Source: an uncultured Chloroflexia bacterium
GTDB taxonomy: Bacteria; Chloroflexota; Limnocylindria; QHBO01
Length of the DNA stretch: 64,000 nucleotides
Reading direction: 5' to 3'
NCBI GenBank assembly: GCA_963783725.1
Contig: CAWAOJ010000002.1
Span: forward strand, 340,469-404,468
The notes below the pieces were generated by a model. It made no database searches and was not told the DNA's origin. It worked only from the letters and a program-made list of their open reading frames with translations. Positions 36,308 through 44,804 of the stretch are shown piece by piece (positions within the stretch are counted from its first letter, which is position 1; each line of letters begins with the position of its first letter). The position numbers and the translations under genes are program-made.

Positions 36308-36868
36308 CTACGCCGGTGCGTACCCCAGGTAGATCGCGCCCGAGCGGAAGCGCCTCGTCTCCGTCTGCCTGAGCCGAAGTGCGCCGTCGAGCGCGGGGAA
36401 GAATGGCGTTCCCGCGCCGAGGACCACCGGGTGCACCACGAGGCCGTAGGCGTCGACGAGGCCGCGCCGGATGAACTGAGCGGCCAGCGTCGGGCCGCCG
36501 AGGTCGAGGTCGCCATCGAACTCGGCTCGCAGTCGTGCCAGCTCCTCGCCGACGTCGCCGTTCACCAGTCGGCTGTTCCATGCGACGCTCTTCAGCGAAG
36601 ATGAGAAGACGACCTTCGGCTTGGGGTTCCAGACGCGGGCGAACTCGAGCATGTACTCGGTCGCCGATGGGTCCGCCTCCGCGGTCGGCCAGTACGCCGC
36701 CATGGTCTCGTACAGCCGTCGGCCGTAGATGAACGCGTCGGCCTCGCGCGAGCGCTCGGTCCACCACGTGTGCAGCTCCTCGTCGATAGTCGTCCAGTCC
36801 AGCGAGTGGTCGAGCGTCTCGACGTATCCGTCGAGCGAGACGTTCATGGAGTAGACGAGCCTGCCCAT
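36308..36868 (-). CDS. Dihydrofolate reductase-like (RibD C-terminal domain) protein
   Basis: MGRLVYSMNVSLDGY...VVHPVVLGAGTPFF, the YyaP/RibD_C pattern. Confidence 0.75.
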   Translation of the reverse strand: MGRLVYSMNVSLDGYVETLDHSLDWTTIDEELHTWWTERSREADAFIYGRRLYETMAAYWPTAEADPSATEYMLEFARVWNPKPKVVFSSSLKSVAWNSRLVNGDVGEELARLRAEFDGDLDLGGPTLAAQFIRRGLVDAYGLVVHPVVLGAGTPFFPALDGALRLRQTETRRFRSGAIYLGYAPA

Positions 36869-37021
36869 TCGGAACCTCGAACTGCGTGGTTTCATGAGGA
36901 TGACCGCTGCCGCGACGAAGACTCATCGCTCCGCCTGAGAATCGCCCGACGCGGGGGCGCCATCCGGCAGCAGCCTATAATCGCGCCGCCGTCTGGTCGA
37001 CGCAGCCGCTGGAGACTCCGA

Positions 37022-39814
37022 ATGGCGACCCTTCCGCAGGGAACGGTCACGTTTCTGTTCACCGATATCGAGGGCTCGACCAGGCTCGTCCAGGCCTTCG
37101 GTGACCGATACGCGGAGCTGCTCGAAACGCACCAGCAGCTGCTCCGCGCGTCCTTCGCTGGCGGCGTCGAGATCTCGACCGAGGGCGACTCCTTCTTCGT
37201 CGCATTCGGCAGCGCGACGGCGGCGGTCGAGGCGGCCGTGGCGGCGCAACGAGCGGTCGCCGGCCACCAGTGGCCGGCTGGCGCATCGGTCCGGGTGCGC
37301 ATGGGGCTGCACACCGGCCAGCCGAGCCTGGGCGGAGACAACTACGTCGGGTTCGACGTCCACCGCGCAGCACGCATCGCCGCTGCCGGGCGCGGGGGAC
37401 AGGTGCTGCTATCCGAATCGACGCACGGGTTGGTGAGGCGCGACCTGCCGGAGGGCGTCACGGAGCGAGACCTGGGCGAGCATCGGCTCAAGGACCTCTC
37501 GCTGCCCGAACACCTCTTCCAGCTCGTGATCCCGGGCCTTCCGGCAGATTTCCCGCCGCTGCGAGCGCTCGATCCCGCGCGCACGAACCTTCCTCCGCAG
37601 CTCACCAGCTTCATCGGACGCGAGCGCGACCTGGCCGCCCTTCGCGAGCTGTGCCTCACCCATCGGCTCGTCACCGTCATCGGCACCGGAGGCACCGGCA
37701 AGACCCGACTGATGCTGCACGCGGCCGCCGAGCTCAACGACGAGTACACGGACGGCGTGTGGCTGGTGGAGCTTGCGCCGATCGGCGATGCGGCGCTCGT
37801 CCCCCAGGCGGTGTCACGTGCGCTGGGGGCGATCGACGAACCGGGACGCGACACGGTGGATGTGCTGGTGGACTTCCTGCGTGCCAAGTCGCTGCTGCTG
37901 CTGATCGACAACTGCGAGCACGTGATCGGGGAGGTGGCCGCACTCGTGCATCGGTTGGTCACGAGCTGCCCCGGACTCGTGGTCCTTGCCTCGAGCCGCG
38001 AAGCGTTGGCGGTGCCGGGCGAGAGCGTCTACCAGCTTGCCTCCCTCGGGATCCCCGCACGCATCGCGGACGTGCACGAAGATCAGGGTGCGACCTGGCT
38101 CGCGGAGGCCGCCGCCTCGGACGCGGTGCGTCTGTTCGTGGATCGAGCGACGGCGATCATGCCGACCTTTGCGCTCACGCCACCCGACGCGAGAGCGGTG
38201 GTCGAGGTCTGTCGCCGCCTCGACGGCATTCCGCTGGCCATCGAGCTCGCGGCGGCACGCGTGACGCTGCTCTCGGTGCAGGAGATCGCCTCACGGCTGG
38301 GCGATCGCTTCCGGTTGCTGACCGGCGGCCGGCGCACCGCCCTGCCACGACAACAGACCCTTGAGGCGCTCATCGACTGGAGCTGGCAGCTCCTCGACCA
38401 ACCCCAGCAACGCCTGTTGCGCCGCCTGTCCGTCTTCGCCGGAGGCTGGACGCTCGAGGCCGCCAGTGCCGTCACTCGCCTGCCCGACGAGCCGGACGCC
38501 GACGACGAGCTGGAGACGCTCGACATGCTCGGTCATCTCGTCGATCGATCGCTGGTGCTGGTCGACCGGGCGGCGCGGTCGAGATACCGCCTGCTCGAGA
38601 CGATCCGGGCGTTCGCCCGTGAACGCCTCGTGGAGGCGCAGGAAGTCACTGAAATCCACGGCACACATCTCGCCTTCTTCCTGCGACTCGCCGAGGAGGC
38701 GGAGCCCGACCTTCGCGGCCCCCAGATGGCACCGGCACTCGCGCGGCTCGATGCCGACGCCGACAACCTTCGGACCGCGCAGGAGTGGGCTTTCGAGGCC
38801 GATCCGGAGCGCGCGCTGCGCCTGTCGCTCGCCCTCTCGACGCTGTGGCGCTCGCGCGACATGGCGGAGGGGCAGCAATGGCTGAGCCGCGCCGCGGCGC
38901 TCGTAAAGTCGATGCCGGCGCCGGCACCGGAGGCGGCGAGGGAACGGGACATGCTCGTCGCGCGCGTGCTCGCGGCGGCCGCGACGGCGTCGTGGCTGAA
39001 CGGTTCGGGAGCGGTTGGGCTGCCCTGGGCGCGCGAGGCGGTGGAGGTCGCCCAGCGCACCGACGATGTCAGGGCGCGGTACGAGGCGCTCGGCTCACTG
39101 GTCATGTCGACGGTCTTTTCGGGGGGCGAGGCGGGGATCATGGAGCGAGCCAACGAGGTCGTTCGTCTCGCCGAGTCGGTCGGTGACTGGTGGACGATCG
39201 GCTTCACACGTGCCGGTCTGGCGCAGTGGGCGATCGAACGAGGCGACGTGGCGGAGGGCGAGGCCATGCTTGCGTCCGCCATGGCGGCCGCCGACCGCAC
39301 GCAGAACCCGACGGTGATCGCATTCGCGGCATTGGCGCACGCGAGGGTGAGCGGCTTCGCCGGCCGCCTTGCCGAGGCACGGGAGTGGTTCGAGCGGACG
39401 ATCGGCGCGTACCGATCGGTGGGCGATGCGGGACTCGCCCTGGTGGCGAGGAGCGACCTTGCCCACGTGCTGCGCCGCGCCGGTTCGATCGACGAGGCCG
39501 AGGCGATCTATCGCGAGACGCTCCACGAGTGGCTGCATGCCGGGAATCGGGGCGCCATCGCCAATCAGCTGGAGTCGTTCGCCTTCATCTTCGTGAAGCG
39601 GGGGGAGCTCGAGCGTGCGGCGCGGCTCTTCGGCGCCGCGGAGGCGATTCGCGAGGTCGCACAGTCGGTGATGCTGTACTCCGAGCGCGAGGAATACGAC
39701 CAGTCGGTCGGCGCCCTGCGGGCCACGCTCGACCGAACATCGCTCGACGCCGCGTGGGCGGAGGGGCGCCGGCTGTCGACCGATGAAGCCGCATCCCTCG
39801 CCATCTCACGCTAG
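37022..39814 (+). CDS. Class III adenylyl/guanylyl cyclase domain fused to STAND-type P-loop NTPase and C-terminal TPR array
   Basis: CHD motifs VTFLFTDIEGST...GDSFFVAF...GLHTG...VGFDVHRAARI; Walker A GTGGTGKTR; long TPR/helical C-terminus. There is no C-terminal LuxR HTH. Confidence 0.85.
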   Translation: MATLPQGTVTFLFTDIEGSTRLVQAFGDRYAELLETHQQLLRASFAGGVEISTEGDSFFVAFGSATAAVEAAVAAQRAVAGHQWPAGASVRVRMGLHTGQPSLGGDNYVGFDVHRAARIAAAGRGGQVLLSESTHGLVRRDLPEGVTERDLGEHRLKDLSLPEHLFQLVIPGLPADFPPLRALDPARTNLPPQLTSFIGRERDLAALRELCLTHRLVTVIGTGGTGKTRLMLHAAAELNDEYTDGVWLVELAPIGDAALVPQAVSRALGAIDEPGRDTVDVLVDFLRAKSLLLLIDNCEHVIGEVAALVHRLVTSCPGLVVLASSREALAVPGESVYQLASLGIPARIADVHEDQGATWLAEAAASDAVRLFVDRATAIMPTFALTPPDARAVVEVCRRLDGIPLAIELAAARVTLLSVQEIASRLGDRFRLLTGGRRTALPRQQTLEALIDWSWQLLDQPQQRLLRRLSVFAGGWTLEAASAVTRLPDEPDADDELETLDMLGHLVDRSLVLVDRAARSRYRLLETIRAFARERLVEAQEVTEIHGTHLAFFLRLAEEAEPDLRGPQMAPALARLDADADNLRTAQEWAFEADPERALRLSLALSTLWRSRDMAEGQQWLSRAAALVKSMPAPAPEAARERDMLVARVLAAAATASWLNGSGAVGLPWAREAVEVAQRTDDVRARYEALGSLVMSTVFSGGEAGIMERANEVVRLAESVGDWWTIGFTRAGLAQWAIERGDVAEGEAMLASAMAAADRTQNPTVIAFAALAHARVSGFAGRLAEAREWFERTIGAYRSVGDAGLALVARSDLAHVLRRAGSIDEAEAIYRETLHEWLHAGNRGAIANQLESFAFIFVKRGELERAARLFGAAEAIREVAQSVMLYSEREEYDQSVGALRATLDRTSLDAAWAEGRRLSTDEAASLAISR

Positions 39815-40125
39815 GCCGGCGGTGTGGACTCTCGGTGGACGGGCCGCCCGCGGCGCGTCAACTTCGTGGACAAACCGGGTTGGCGGCGAGGCAGTGCCGC
39901 CGTAGGGTGTCTGTGGCACCCACGGAGGGGCCACTCGACGGGTCACCGGAGGTGACACCGGACGGGGCACTCGATTCGACGCTCGACCGATCACTCGATC
40001 CATTTCGGTAACGTCAGGGATGCGGGAGTCGGCGCGGGACCGAACGCGGGACCTTGCACCGGATCATTCACCGGAGCGCGCGCGGGAGTTCCTCCGAAGG
40101 TGCCGTTTTCGTGCGGGCGCGCGGG

Positions 40126-41184
40126 TCACCCGTCGCAGTCGAGCAGTCCCGCCGCCTCCTTCGCGCGCAGGACGTGCCATGCCGCGTTCTCGACGCGTGC
40201 ACGGAACCACTGCTTCACCGACGCCTCGACCTGAATCGCTCGCGCCATCTCGATGGCATCGTCCAGCTGGTTGAGCACGATCATGTCCCCGCCGGCGTTC
40301 AAGAAGTCGCGCGCGCGGGTCGATGCGGGCATGCCCGCGACGGCGGTCGATCCCAGGCTGTCGGAGATGACCACGCCGCGGAAGCCAAGGTCGCCGCGCA
40401 GCATGCCGTTGATGACGGTGTTGGAAAAGACGGCCAGGTGCTGCGGGTCGATCAGCGTGTAGGTCGCCTCCGAGATCATGACGAAGCGTGCGCCCGCGGC
40501 GATGGCGGCGGCAAACGGCGAGAGGTACGGGTCGCCGCGCGTCGTCACGGCATCGGTCACGTCGGCGCTGAAGTCGGTGTTGCCGATCACGCGGCCAAGC
40601 CCTGGAAAGTGCTTGGCGGTCACGCTCACGCCGCTGGCGCCCAGGCCGGCGACGAAGGCCGCGACGTGCGAGGCGGCAGTGGCGGGGTCGTGCGCGTACT
40701 CGCGCGCCCAGTGGCCGATCGGTGCGTTCTGCTCATCGGTCCCGCTTGGAACGACGTCCGCAACGGGCGCGAGATCCAGGTTCACGCCCGCGGCGCGCAG
40801 CTGCGCGCCCCATCGGGCGGCGAGTGACGTCAGCCGAGCGACGGACATGGCGCCCTGCGCCAGCGCGCTCGGCATCACGTCGAAGCCTGGTCCAGTCAGC
40901 GCCTGGATGTCGCCGCCCTCCTGGTTGGCGGCCACGAAGAAGGGCACTCCGTAGGTGGCTGCCCGCGTGGCCTGTGCCTGGACGAGGTTCGACACGCCAC
41001 GTATCGCGGCCACGCCATCGCTCGACCGATGGGCGAACATCACCGAGCCGAAGTGCCACGTCGCGATCGCCTGCTGGCGGGCGGCATCCAGGCGGTCGCT
41101 GGTGAGCCCGATCATGAACAGCTGCCCGATGCGCTGAGCCTCGCTCATGGAGGCGAGCGTTCGGAGTGCGCAGCTGGGCGGCAC
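40126..41184 (-). CDS. Glycoside hydrolase family 3 N-terminal domain protein (NagZ/LpqI-like beta-N-acetylhexosaminidase)
   Basis: AQRIGQLFMIGL...NQEGGDIQAL...VTAKHFPGLG...VVISDSLG. Frame-intact only from GTG 41184; the upstream lipoprotein signal is in another frame (see next feature). Confidence 0.8.
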   Translation of the reverse strand: MPPSCALRTLASMSEAQRIGQLFMIGLTSDRLDAARQQAIATWHFGSVMFAHRSSDGVAAIRGVSNLVQAQATRAATYGVPFFVAANQEGGDIQALTGPGFDVMPSALAQGAMSVARLTSLAARWGAQLRAAGVNLDLAPVADVVPSGTDEQNAPIGHWAREYAHDPATAASHVAAFVAGLGASGVSVTAKHFPGLGRVIGNTDFSADVTDAVTTRGDPYLSPFAAAIAAGARFVMISEATYTLIDPQHLAVFSNTVINGMLRGDLGFRGVVISDSLGSTAVAGMPASTRARDFLNAGGDMIVLNQLDDAIEMARAIQVEASVKQWFRARVENAAWHVLRAKEAAGLLDCDG

Positions 41185-41479
41185 GGCCCGGCGTGGGTGA
41201 CGGCGAGGGCGTCGCGGACGGCCGGGGCGTCGCGGACCGCGGGGGGATCGGCGTTGACGCTGGCGTGGGCACAGCGGTGGGCGCTGGGGCGGAGGCGCTC
41301 GCAGTTGCGGATGAGACCGGCGTGCCGGTGGCGATGCCGACGACAGCGAGGGTCGGCAGCGGCGTCGGCGGCGGGGGAGCGGCGCTGAGCTGCGCGCACG
41401 CGGTCAGGACGAGGATCAGCGGCGCGGCGGCGAGGCGGAGGCGAAGGTGAGGCATGCGTCTCCCGAACCTGCGTGGCAC
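41185..41479 (-). CDS. Lipoprotein signal peptide + Pro/Thr-rich linker ORF, probable 5' part of the GH3 gene displaced by a 1-nt indel
   Basis: MPRRFGRRMPHLRLRLAAAPLILVLTAC (lipobox LTAC), then about 75 aa of PT-rich linker. Beyond about 41185 this frame turns into Arg-rich nonsense while the other frame becomes ...PPSCALRTLASMSEAQRIGQ (GH3). Confidence 0.5.
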
Positions 41480-41555
41480 CCGGCGGGTGCGGATCGGGGC
41501 GCTGACGCATCAGCCTCGAAAGTTGCTACGCCTGCGCCGGCGTAAAGTTGGCAGC

Positions 41556-41906
41556 GTGAACGACAGCGAATCCCCGATCGACCCCGGCGTGCCGCCCAGC
41601 GGCACTGGCTGCGTCGAGTGCCTTGCGTCCGGCGGCTGGTGGTTCCATCTGCGTCGCTGCGCGCAGTGCGGGCACATCGGGTGCTGCGACACGTCGCCCT
41701 CGCAGCACGCCACCCGGCACGCCGAGTCGGCGCGGCACCCGGTGGTGCAGAGCTACGAGCCGGGTGAGGACTGGTTCTGGGACTACGCGCACCTCGAGTA
41801 CGTGGACGGACCGATGCTCGCCGCGCCGCAGCACCGTCCCCTCGACCAGCCGGTGCCCGGGCCGGCCGGCCGCGTTCCGCCGGACTGGGAGAGCCAGCTC
41901 AACTAG
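41556..41906 (+). CDS. UBP-type zinc-finger (zf-UBP) domain protein
   Basis: CVECLASGGWWFHLRRCAQCGHIGCCDTSPSQHATRHAESARHPV is the zf-UBP Cys/His ligand pattern. Start unsure (GTG 41556; track ATG 41454). Confidence 0.65.
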   Translation: MNDSESPIDPGVPPSGTGCVECLASGGWWFHLRRCAQCGHIGCCDTSPSQHATRHAESARHPVVQSYEPGEDWFWDYAHLEYVDGPMLAAPQHRPLDQPVPGPAGRVPPDWESQLN

Positions 41907-41994: not shown

Positions 41995-43824
41995 ATGACC
42001 TCCGCCCTCACTCCCGCTGCCCTCGGCGTGCGCGACGACATCCGCAACGTCGCGATCGTCGCGCATGTCGACCACGGCAAGACGACCCTGGTCGACGCCC
42101 TGCTGCGCCAGACCGGGACCTTCCGCGCCAACCAGACGCTGGTGGACCGCGTCCTCGACTCGGGAGAGCTGGAGCGCGAAAAGGGGATCACCATCCTCGC
42201 CAAGCAGACGACCGTCGAGTATCGAGGCGTCCACCTCAACATCATCGACACGCCCGGCCACGTCGACTTCGGCGGCGAGGTCGAGCGGGGGCTGGTGATG
42301 GTGGACGCGGTCCTGCTCCTCGTGGACGCCGCTGAGGGCCCGCTGCCCCAGACGCGCTACGTGCTCAAGAAGGCGATGGCGCGCGGCCTGCCGGTGATCG
42401 TCGCGGTCAACAAGATCGACCGATCCGACGCGCGGGCGCCCGAGGTGCTCGACGCGATCTACGACCTGTTCATCAGCCTCGGCGCCGACGACGCGCAGAT
42501 CGACTTTCCGGTGGTCTACACGGTCGGGACCCAGGGAACCGCCTCGCTGTCCCTGACGGAGCCCGGCACCGACCTCGCGCCGCTGCTCGATCTGCTGCTC
42601 GCCGTCACTCCTGCGCCGACCTTCGTGCCCGGACATCCGCTGCAGCTGCTGGTCTCGAACCTCGCCGCATCGGACTACCTCGGTCGCATGGCCGTCGGTC
42701 GCGTGTGGAACGGCACCCTGCGCATCGGCCAGCGGATCTCGATCGTGCGCGAGGATGCGACGATCAGCGGAACCGTCAGCGCGCTGCAGACTGCCCACGG
42801 GATCGACCGCATCGACATGGCGGAGGCGGGTCCGGGCGACATCGTCGCGGTGGCCGGCATCCCCGAGGTGACCATCGGCGACACGATCACCGACCCCGCC
42901 GATCCCCGACCCTTGCCGAGGCTCGACGTCGACGCGCCGACGGTTCGGATGACGTTCGGCGTCAACAGCAGCCCGCTCGTCGGGCGCGAGGGGAAGTTCC
43001 TCACCACGCGGCAGATCAGGGCGCGGCTGGAGCGCGAGGTGCTGGGCAACGTCTCGATCGAGGTCCGTCCGATCGAGGGCACCGATGCGTACGAGGTGCG
43101 CGGCCGCGGTGAGCTCCAGCTCGCCGTCCTGATCGAGCAGATGCGACGCGAGGGCTTCGAGCTCACCGTCAGCCGTCCCGAGGTCATCGAGCGCACCGTG
43201 GACGGCATGCGCCAGGAGCCGTACGAGCGCATCACCATCGACGTGCCGCCGGAGTACATCGGCGCCGTGCAGCAGGGCCTCGCGCCGCGCAAGGCGAGGC
43301 TCGAGCAGCTGACCGCCACCGCCGACGGCCGCGCGCTGCTGGAGTTCACCATCCCGACGCGCGGGTTGATCGGCTACCGCGGCCAGCTGCTGTCGGACAC
43401 ACGCGGCACCGCGCTGCTGCACCAGTTCGGCGAAGGCTACGGCCCCTGGGCCGGCGACGTGGTGCATCGCACCAGCGGCGTGCTGGTGGCCGATCGGAGC
43501 GGGGAGAGTCGCGCCTACGCGCTCTCGAGCCTGATCGAGCGCGGCGAGCTGTTCATCGGTCCGTCCGTCGAAGTCTACGAGGGCATGATCATCGGCGAGA
43601 GCGCGCGACCCGGCGACATGAACGTGAACCCGACCAAGTCAAAGAAGCTGTCGAAGATGCGCACCCAGGCCACCGACGGCGACTACCGCATCCCGACCCC
43701 GCCCCGAGTGCACACCCTGGAAACGGCCATCGAGTTCATCGACGCCGATGAGCTGGTGGAGGTGACCCCAGGCGCGATCCGGCTCCGCAAGCGCGTGCTC
43801 GACGCGCACGGCCGGCGGGATTGA
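41995..43824 (+). CDS. typA: Translational GTPase TypA/BipA
   Basis: [20 protein letters not shown] and NKIDR; 610 aa EF-G-like domain order. Confidence 0.95.
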
Positions 43825-44406: not shown

Positions 44407-44804
44407 GTTCCCGCGACCCTCTGCCGCGCGGTCGTCAGCAGCGGATCGAGCCGTGCCAGGCGGGCGCGGAGCGCGGTGCTGCCCGCATCGGTCAGGCGAT
44501 ACGGTCGCCGCCGGCCTTCGGCGGGGAGCGGCGCGAGCAGGCCGTCGGCCTCGAGCCGCGAGATGGCACCGTAGAGCGTGCCGGGACCGAGGCGCACGCC
44601 GGCGAACGCCTGTACGTCGAGCATGATGCCGTGCCCGTGGCGCGGCCCGGAGGCCAGGCTGATCATCACCAGCAGGCCGGGCTCGGTGGGTGGGTTGGGA
44701 GTGGCCAGGATCTCGCCTCCTGCTACGCGCCGCGATACTACGTCGCACGTAGTATCAATCGAGCAGCGCGGGCTGTCAACCACGATTGCCGGCACACCTG
44801 CCAT
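44403..44804 (-). CDS. PadR-family transcriptional regulator
   Basis: LLVMISLASGPRHGHGIMLDV...GTLYGAISRLEADGLL matches the PadR winged helix. The true start is probably internal to this ORF. Confidence 0.7.
   Translation of the reverse strand: MAGVPAIVVDSPRCSIDTTCDVVSRRVAGGEILATPNPPTEPGLLVMISLASGPRHGHGIMLDVQAFAGVRLGPGTLYGAISRLEADGLLAPLPAEGRRRPYRLTDAGSTALRARLARLDPLLTTARQRVAGT

Follow-up and report, generated by a model that had tools for sequence, protein, structure and literature searches.

The stretch analysed here (the window) comprises 64,000 nucleotides of contig CAWAOJ010000002.1 from an uncultured Chloroflexia bacterium. Between positions 41479 and 40126 its minus strand carries all parts of a lipoprotein with a glycoside hydrolase family 3 (GH3) catalytic domain, distributed over two reading frames. 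We propose that the locus is a single lipoprotein GH3 gene with one extra base, and that the extra base is a consensus error of a long-read assembly, a reading to which we give a probability of about 0.6. The consensus error was favoured because GH3 frameshifts were exclusive to Microflora Danica (MFD) nanopore metagenome-assembled genomes (MAGs) and to assemblies of the European Nucleotide Archive (ENA) with Flye-style contig names, because the sequence context matches and because no decay was seen. A reading made from the letters of the window alone (the sequence-only reading) had already suggested one lipoprotein-linker-GH3 gene split by a 1-nt indel, and had named a sequencing error, a genuine frameshift and a pseudogene as alternatives. 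The relatives, which carry all parts in one open reading frame (ORF), bear out the single gene.

Frame A (minus-strand ORF 41479..40733) opens with MPRRFGRRMPHLRLRLAAAPLILVLTAC and contains a lipoprotein signal followed by a linker of 70 amino acids (aa). Frame B (ORF 41184..40126), which is +1 relative to frame A, codes for a 352-aa protein, with PPSCALRTLASM encoded upstream of the first Met, then a complete GH3 domain and the stop at 40126. The parts of the gene are as follows.

41460..41464, minus strand: Shine-Dalgarno-like (SD-like) GGGAG, read from the sequence, 4 nt upstream of ATG 41455
41396..41455, minus strand: lipoprotein signal peptide MPHLRLRLAAAPLILVLTAC in frame A, lipobox L-T-A-C, Cys codon 41398-41396
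41186..41395, minus strand: Pro/Ala/Thr/Ser-rich linker in frame A, 70 aa, 79.5% GC, holding a 13-nt direct repeat
41179..41194, minus strand: interval of the change from frame A to frame B, ACGCCGGGCCGTGCCG, one base extra (or two missing)
41149..41181, minus strand: N-terminal segment of the mature domain, PPSCALRTLAS, in frame B and upstream of the deposited start, invariant Cys at 41172-41170
40126..41148, minus strand: GH3 catalytic domain as deposited, 340 aa from ATG 41148, stop 40128-40126
40614-40573, minus strand: conserved motif KHFPGLGRVIGNTD within GH3, containing N-T-D at 40581-40573
40377-40354, minus strand: conserved region GVVISDSL with the putative nucleophile Asp
40137-40135, minus strand: invariant C-terminal Cys, four residues from the C-terminus, in LLDCDG

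The lipoprotein signal (LILVLTAC) and the long Pro/Thr-rich linker that the sequence-only reading had placed in one frame are present in frame A, and the GH3 domain that it had placed in the adjacent frame is matched by Pfam PF00933 in frame B. The signal has the pattern of a signal peptidase II substrate, with a positively charged n-region, a hydrophobic h-region and a lipobox of the form [LVI][ASTVI][GAS]C, to which MPHLRLRLAAAPLILVL-TAC fits, and the lipobox Cys column is kept in 59/60 full-length homologs. Nearly all of the linker's 70 residues are Pro (20), Ala (14), Thr (11) or Ser (10), and homologs have linkers of matching composition and length at the equivalent place. Upstream, frame B stays free of stops as far as 41403, and frame A does so downstream as far as 40733; both were verified to be open over 41176-41191, the junction that had been quoted. 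Since the window has a GC content of 70% and 26 ORFs of at least 50 aa lie within 2.7 kb, the openness of overlapping frames is no evidence by itself; it is the homology on both sides of the junction that sets the split gene apart from coincidence.

The frame-A peptide starting at ATG 41455 aligned residue 1 to residue 1 with the N-terminus of the relative P0003 (MPQLR-RILAVSLVPILSACSQLS, E 9e-5) and with that of P0004 (E 3e-6). By these alignments, the gene start homologous to that of the relatives is ATG 41455, instead of GTG 41479. The SCAxxTLAxM motif, which follows the junction in frame B, is present in the family consensus. When the two frames were joined with a 1-nt correction, the product was contiguous, as had been predicted, and aligned end to end with P0003, P0004, P0010 and P0021 at 100% query coverage. 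The sole form of the window protein in the protein collection is the deposited P0001, which has 340 aa and is 100% identical to the window GH3 from the internal ATG 41148; the upstream ORF has no entry there.

With the spliced protein as the query, 3,829 relatives were retrieved, and the architecture was read in the best 120. These are mostly about 360-464 aa long and show a lipobox, a Pro/Thr-rich (PT-rich) linker, the segment [ST]CAxxTLAxM[ST]E.QRIGQLF and GH3. The identity of the window protein to metagenomic relatives was 63-75%. Loci were taken from a GTDB genome search (19 species-representative loci) and from a metagenome collection (80 loci on JGI-style short-read contigs, 72 of them evaluable upstream). 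Where an organism was named, the hosts of the relatives were Chloroflexota (Limnocylindria), to which the GTDB genome search adds Actinomycetota.

Orthologous loci had been named as a check for an uninterrupted ORF, and most of them have one. The species-representative loci were uninterrupted in 16/19 cases, including the closest one, L001, from a Limnocylindria MAG (74% identity). Among the short-read metagenome loci, 69/72 had lipobox, linker and GH3 in frame, 27 of the in-frame lipoboxes being assigned by manual reading; of the other three, L099 has a plain signal peptide, L066 has no extension and L060 has an in-frame stop. No frameshift in the GH3 gene was found among the 72 evaluable short-read loci, and none was found among the 82 loci outside the MFD MAG set. 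At the window locus the lipobox signal, the PT linker, the SCA motif and GH3 are all homologous to those of the relatives but are not in a single ORF.

The frame change could be confined to a short interval. At 41188-41186 frame A is still linker-like (SPSPTPG), and frame B has to be the correct one from the first Pro (41181) of PPSCA onward, a segment conserved in the relatives; this places the indel within 41194-41179. The junction includes CCGGGCCGTGCCG, and the versions shorter by one base are ACGCCGGCCGTGCCG or ACGCCGGGCGTGCCG; dropping one G from the GGG run gives TPAVPPSCALRT, dropping one C gives TPGVPPSCALRT, and both match the family pattern. K-mers flanking the junction include GCCGTCACCCACGCC and CCCAGCTGCGCACTCCGAACGCTCGCC. 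The break itself lies in a GC-rich stretch whose G and C runs reach no more than 2-3 bases, and the longest homopolymer near the break is a G6 at 41241-41246, 50 nt off.

Two other features of the linker were considered and rejected. The near-tandem repeat that had been pointed out as a possible cause of slippage is real: the 13-nt sequence GGGCGTCGCGGAC occurs at 41207-41219 and 41225-41237 with an 18-nt period, encoding SATP-RP-SATP. It does not lie at the break, at least 13 nt separating the two, and it was rejected as the slippage site since it ends 13 nt upstream of the frame-change interval. A third frame was favoured by the codon model at 41290-41230, and it was rejected because its peptide NADPPAVRDAPAVRDALAVTHAG (stop 41145) has no counterpart in the relatives. 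Frame A is PT-rich like the linkers of the relatives, unlike the third frame, and the codon model is unreliable inside the PT linker.

Frameshifts in this gene go with long-read assemblies. L008, L010 and L017, the three species-representative loci whose ORF is broken, all come from MFD MAGs. Hence GH3-gene frameshifts were found in 3/9 MFD loci vs 0/82 others (Fisher p about 7e-4, our own calculation from the counts). A fourth frameshift was found in L024 (ERZ25039511), an ENA assembly with Flye-style contig names. The frameshift positions in these four loci differ, that of L017 being just before the SRSCA motif. The indels in the MFD GH3 genes are of 1 nt and lie where short G/C runs begin or end (GGGC to GGGCC, CCCCCG to CCCCCGG, and a C lost beside a C run), and the window junction CCGGGCCGTG has a similar context. 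The MFD MAGs were built from nanopore reads only, with Flye as the assembler and a single round of Medaka polishing (PMC12313526). Nanopore consensus indels cause frameshifts and fragment genes, especially at low coverage (PMC9262707).

When the ORFs of the syntenic loci were compared by tblastn, L010 and L017 each proved to have several more frame splits in their neighbouring genes, within 7 kb, and L008 had at least one.

L010, about 1060, 4797 and 5190: flanking frame splits
L017, about 236, 3332 and 4625: flanking frame splits
L008, about 6640: flanking frame split

The indel load of L010 and L017, both species-representative MFD genomes, is thus heavy, at roughly one frame split per 1.5-2 kb.

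The deposited protein P0001 sits on a MAG contig of 2,238,515 bp with NCBI and ENA as sources, and we took long reads to be implied by a MAG contig of 2.24 Mb. The same source signature was found for P0105 and P0017, which come from ERZ25039594 and ERZ25039483 and have Flye-style 'contig_N' names, the series to which L024 belongs. From these observations we infer that the window contig is a long-read (nanopore-type) assembly.

Both halves of the gene look undecayed. Among 119 homologs, 102 alignment columns are conserved in 97% or more of the sequences. The window agrees with these in 101/102 columns, the exception being a conservative change of Met to Leu, and intact homologs typically have 0-1 mismatches in the same columns. 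The SD-like sequence, the lipobox and the linker composition are all intact in the window copy. The locus has a single lesion and does not show the multiple lesions and lost conserved residues of a decayed pseudogene. The undecayed halves fit either an artefact or a very recent mutation. No second frame break was found in the 64 kb by a codon-likelihood scan of all six frames; candidate breaks at about 12003 and 44430-44750 were rejected, since they are normal gene boundaries.

The strongest alternative is a genuine recent frameshift that has left a young pseudogene or a null allele, which we regard as possible, at odds of roughly one in three. Translation starting at ATG 41455 would yield the signal and linker and then, out of frame, about 150 residues rich in Arg (stop 40733), with GH3 poorly made or not made at all. 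The break is present in the sequence as given, and several observations speak for taking it at face value and weigh against a consensus error. Because the rest of the window has no frame breaks, the assembly appears locally accurate: it has no more than about one indel per 64 kb, many fewer than L010 or L017, so that an error in a given 1.3-kb gene has an a priori chance of a few percent. The break lies outside the long homopolymers where nanopore errors concentrate, and GC-rich low-complexity repeats are mutational hot spots too. The sequencing platform of the contig is itself an inference only. Real lesions do occur in this family, as in L060, a short-read soil contig whose lipoprotein, linker and GH3 parts all lie in one frame but with an in-frame stop at about 505-509, directly before the conserved Cys (TPTPTATA-stop-CAGRVLAPMTEEQ). 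This nonsense codon, at nearly the same place as the break in the window, indicates that the gene can be lost, and L060 is a possible genuine null allele of the family. With 1/82 non-MFD loci lesioned (the L060 stop) and 0 frameshifted, the chance of a genuine lesion is similar to that of an error. Frameshift pseudogenes at roughly 1% per gene are normal in bacteria.

On the other side, 0/82 non-MFD loci are frameshifted in this gene, and the other four copies with a frameshift all come from MFD nanopore MAGs or from the Flye-style ENA assembly, two of the MAGs having many other breaks. Moreover, since there is only one lesion and the conserved residues are kept, a genuine event would have to be very recent.

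It is very improbable that the locus holds two functional genes, a small PT-rich lipoprotein and a cytoplasmic NagZ-like GH3 enzyme translated from GTG 41184 or ATG 41148. This possibility draws on the deposited P0001, which is the 340-aa form, and on the entries for the relatives, about a third of the best 120 being listed at 336-350 aa and starting at or just before the internal Met. When the contigs of such short entries were checked, L020, L021 and L022/L023 had the signal peptide and linker upstream in the GH3 frame.

L020, about 2180-2500: in-frame signal and linker upstream of the short entry
L021, about 2200-2500: in-frame signal and linker upstream of the short entry
L022 and L023, about 2190-2500: in-frame signal and linker upstream of the short entry

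The short entries L020-L023 are start-codon miscalls of the gene caller. The miscall is probably systematic and due to the PT-linker region scoring poorly as coding. The fourth examined entry, L024, has its signal and linker in another frame, with a break inside the linker at a place other than that in the window. Since 3/4 examined entries of about 340 aa are in-frame start miscalls and the fourth is frameshifted, these relatives were rejected as examples of a conserved split. Inspection of the sequence before GTG 41184 and ATG 41148 revealed no SD-like sequence or comparable purine run. The form starting at the ATG would lack a Cys that is invariant in 60/60 homologs and that points to an extracytoplasmic disulfide, and frame A, which meets no stop close to the junction, continues for about 150 codons over GH3. 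The arrangement is absent in all relatives examined: orthologs with two separate genes, which would have spoken for it, were looked for among them and not found. A functional cytoplasmic enzyme from GTG 41184, as the sequence-only reading had offered, is therefore unlikely, given the missing SD-like sequence and the invariant Cys pair and signal peptide of the family.

Least probable of all is that the break serves for programmed +1 ribosomal frameshifting, for transcriptional slippage or for phase variation, and so controls GH3 production or export: the break does fall between two functional modules, L017 breaks just before the equivalent SRSCA motif and the 13-nt direct repeat is nearby, but its position is not shared (the gene is in frame in the closest relatives, and the other breaks lie elsewhere, in error-rich MAGs), the junction offers frame A neither a stop nor a recognisable slippery or hungry-codon site, and there is neither an A/T homopolymer for slippage nor a long simple repeat for phase variation. 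We consider it just as improbable that low-level +1 recoding or reversible linker indels would switch GH3 between an exported lipoprotein and a cytoplasmic NagZ-like enzyme from ATG 41148 that acts in muropeptide recycling.

If the extra base is a consensus error, as we favour, the intended product would start at ATG 41455, be exported and be lipidated, as the signal predicts, at Cys20 in the L-T-A-C lipobox. Its Pro/Thr-rich linker of roughly 70 residues would hold the enzyme off the membrane, and the protein would end in a single-domain GH3, in which a disulfide probably joins the post-linker Cys and the C-terminal Cys. Judged from family resemblance, the enzyme would cleave a beta-linked sugar, probably GlcNAc, off the end of cell-wall or other glycan fragments outside the cytoplasm. 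The one nucleotide added in 41194-41179 would then be a residual consensus indel of a nanopore-type metagenome assembly.

The corrected gene model is 41455-40126 minus one base in 41194-41179, with a product of about 443 aa, and the deposited 340-aa protein is then a truncated call of an exported lipoprotein glycosidase. Truncated entries are widespread in the GH3 lipoprotein family, through start miscalls in short-read assemblies and through frameshifts in several nanopore-only MAGs, so inferences about localisation that are drawn from such entries (cytoplasmic NagZ vs surface enzyme) would be wrong. Nothing biologically unusual is demonstrated at the break, and the gene is an ordinary member of a populous family.

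The GH3 gene stands alone on the minus strand, and no functional linkage to its neighbours was evident. The neighbouring genes are as follows.

36770-39814, plus strand: ORF of 1014 aa with an adenylate/guanylate cyclase catalytic domain, a STAND/AAA NTPase and tetratricopeptide repeats (MalT-like), convergent with the GH3 gene
41454-41906, plus strand: UBP-type zinc finger ORF (PF02148, E 5e-13), divergent from the GH3 gene
about 42019 to 43824 (coding signal), plus strand: large ORF resembling a translational GTPase, beyond the zinc finger gene
44804-43831, minus strand: PadR-type-regulator-like gene and membrane-protein gene, the regulator at 44804-44403, judged from sequence

The mechanical start of the zinc finger ORF, ATG 41454, abuts the GH3 ATG 41455 on the opposite strand. 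Its true start is probably further downstream, as the coding signal begins at about 41700 and the Pfam match at about 41610. The membrane-protein gene (start near 44436) overlaps the PadR-like gene by about 30 nt in another frame, and the two form an ordinary gene pair. A promoter and terminator scan of 39900-41750 returned no matches and was uninformative.

The identity of the enzyme was examined by profile matches and by its catalytic residues. The Pfam GH3 N-terminal domain PF00933 matched with E 9.3e-39 (134 bits vs a cutoff of 27), residues 17-340 aligning with positions 4-315 of the 316-position profile. Residues S273 and D274 of the nucleophile motif (V/I)(S/T)D are invariant in alignment A1, and the Asp in GVVISDSL is the putative catalytic nucleophile. 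The stretch from K190 through D203 (KHFPGLGRVxxNTD) is likewise invariant in alignment A1. The best NCBIfam match was NF003740 (NagZ), with E 5e-33, and its 114.5 bits fall short of the equivalog cutoff of 207.

The Asp-His dyad of NagZ enzymes, sought as D-[ST/P]-H after KHFPGxG, is absent from the window protein, which has G-N-T-D where 6K5J has E-D-S-H and 7VI6 has A-D-P-H. In the alignments, the N-T-D of the window sequence KHFPGLGRVIGNTDFS thus stands against D-S-H in 6K5J and D-P-H in 7VI6, and 5BU9 shares the N-T-D. Of the 120 closest homologs, 94 had NTD and 13 had HTD, and the search pattern was unmatched in 13. Because N-T-D replaces D-x-H, the window protein falls outside the NagZ/LpqI subfamily as defined by the dyad. 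A family with N/H-T-D at this place may use a different acid/base arrangement. The occurrence of N/H-T-D in place of the NagZ Asp-His dyad across a large Chloroflexota/Actinomycetota family of GH3 lipoproteins is the more interesting side result of this work.

The Cys after the linker (SCA) and the C-terminal Cys (LLDCDG) are each invariant in 60/60 full-length homologs, the lipobox Cys being a third conserved one. Together with the signal peptide, the invariant Cys pair suggests an extracytoplasmic, disulfide-stapled enzyme, and the conservation suggests that the disulfide joins the N- and C-termini of the exported protein. The deposited 340-aa model lacks the post-linker Cys. The enzyme probably acts on beta-linked sugars outside the cell, and the name 'beta-N-acetylhexosaminidase' in JGI and PDB entries is annotation only.

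Among known systems, the lesion resembles the artefacts of nanopore-only assemblies, in which a conserved ORF that is intact apart from this is split by an indel of one base within GC-rich sequence; it differs in that the window break lies in 2-3-nt runs and the surrounding 64 kb are clean. For the protein, the closest solved structure is 5BU9 ('Beta-N-acetylhexosaminidase', 340 aa), which matched residues 11-343 of the window GH3 with E 3e-74. Both are single GH3 N-terminal (TIM-barrel) domains with KHFPGLGRV..NTD and the (V)SD nucleophile region, and the solved chain starts at the internal-Met position, without signal, linker or N-terminal Cys. No description of the activity of 5BU9 was found in the searchable literature, where the only '5BU9' mention was in a metagenomics survey (PMC6956184). 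By sequence, the window protein belongs to the 5BU9-like single-domain GH3 lipoproteins of Limnocylindria, other Chloroflexota and Actinomycetota.

The label LpqI-like or NagZ-like given by the sequence-only reading is loose: it fits the layout of a lipoprotein with a single GH3 domain, but the protein is closer to 5BU9 and has N-T-D in place of the D-x-H dyad. LpqI (Rv0237; PDB 6GFV) is a distant relative of the window GH3 (E 1.8e-15) and shares its design, an N-terminal lipobox lipoprotein with a single GH3 domain. It is a mycobacterial NagZ-type beta-N-acetylglucosaminidase of peptidoglycan recycling and a lipoprotein on the outer face of the membrane, and the Asp-His dyad is used by LpqI and all known NagZ enzymes (PMC6572805). 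The window family differs from LpqI in having N-T-D/H-T-D, a long PT linker and the invariant Cys pair. NagZ, the cytoplasmic enzyme of muropeptide recycling in Gram-negative bacteria, shares the GH3 fold, the length of about 340 aa and the KHFPG motif with the window family, whereas the latter is exported and lipid-anchored and does not conserve the dyad.

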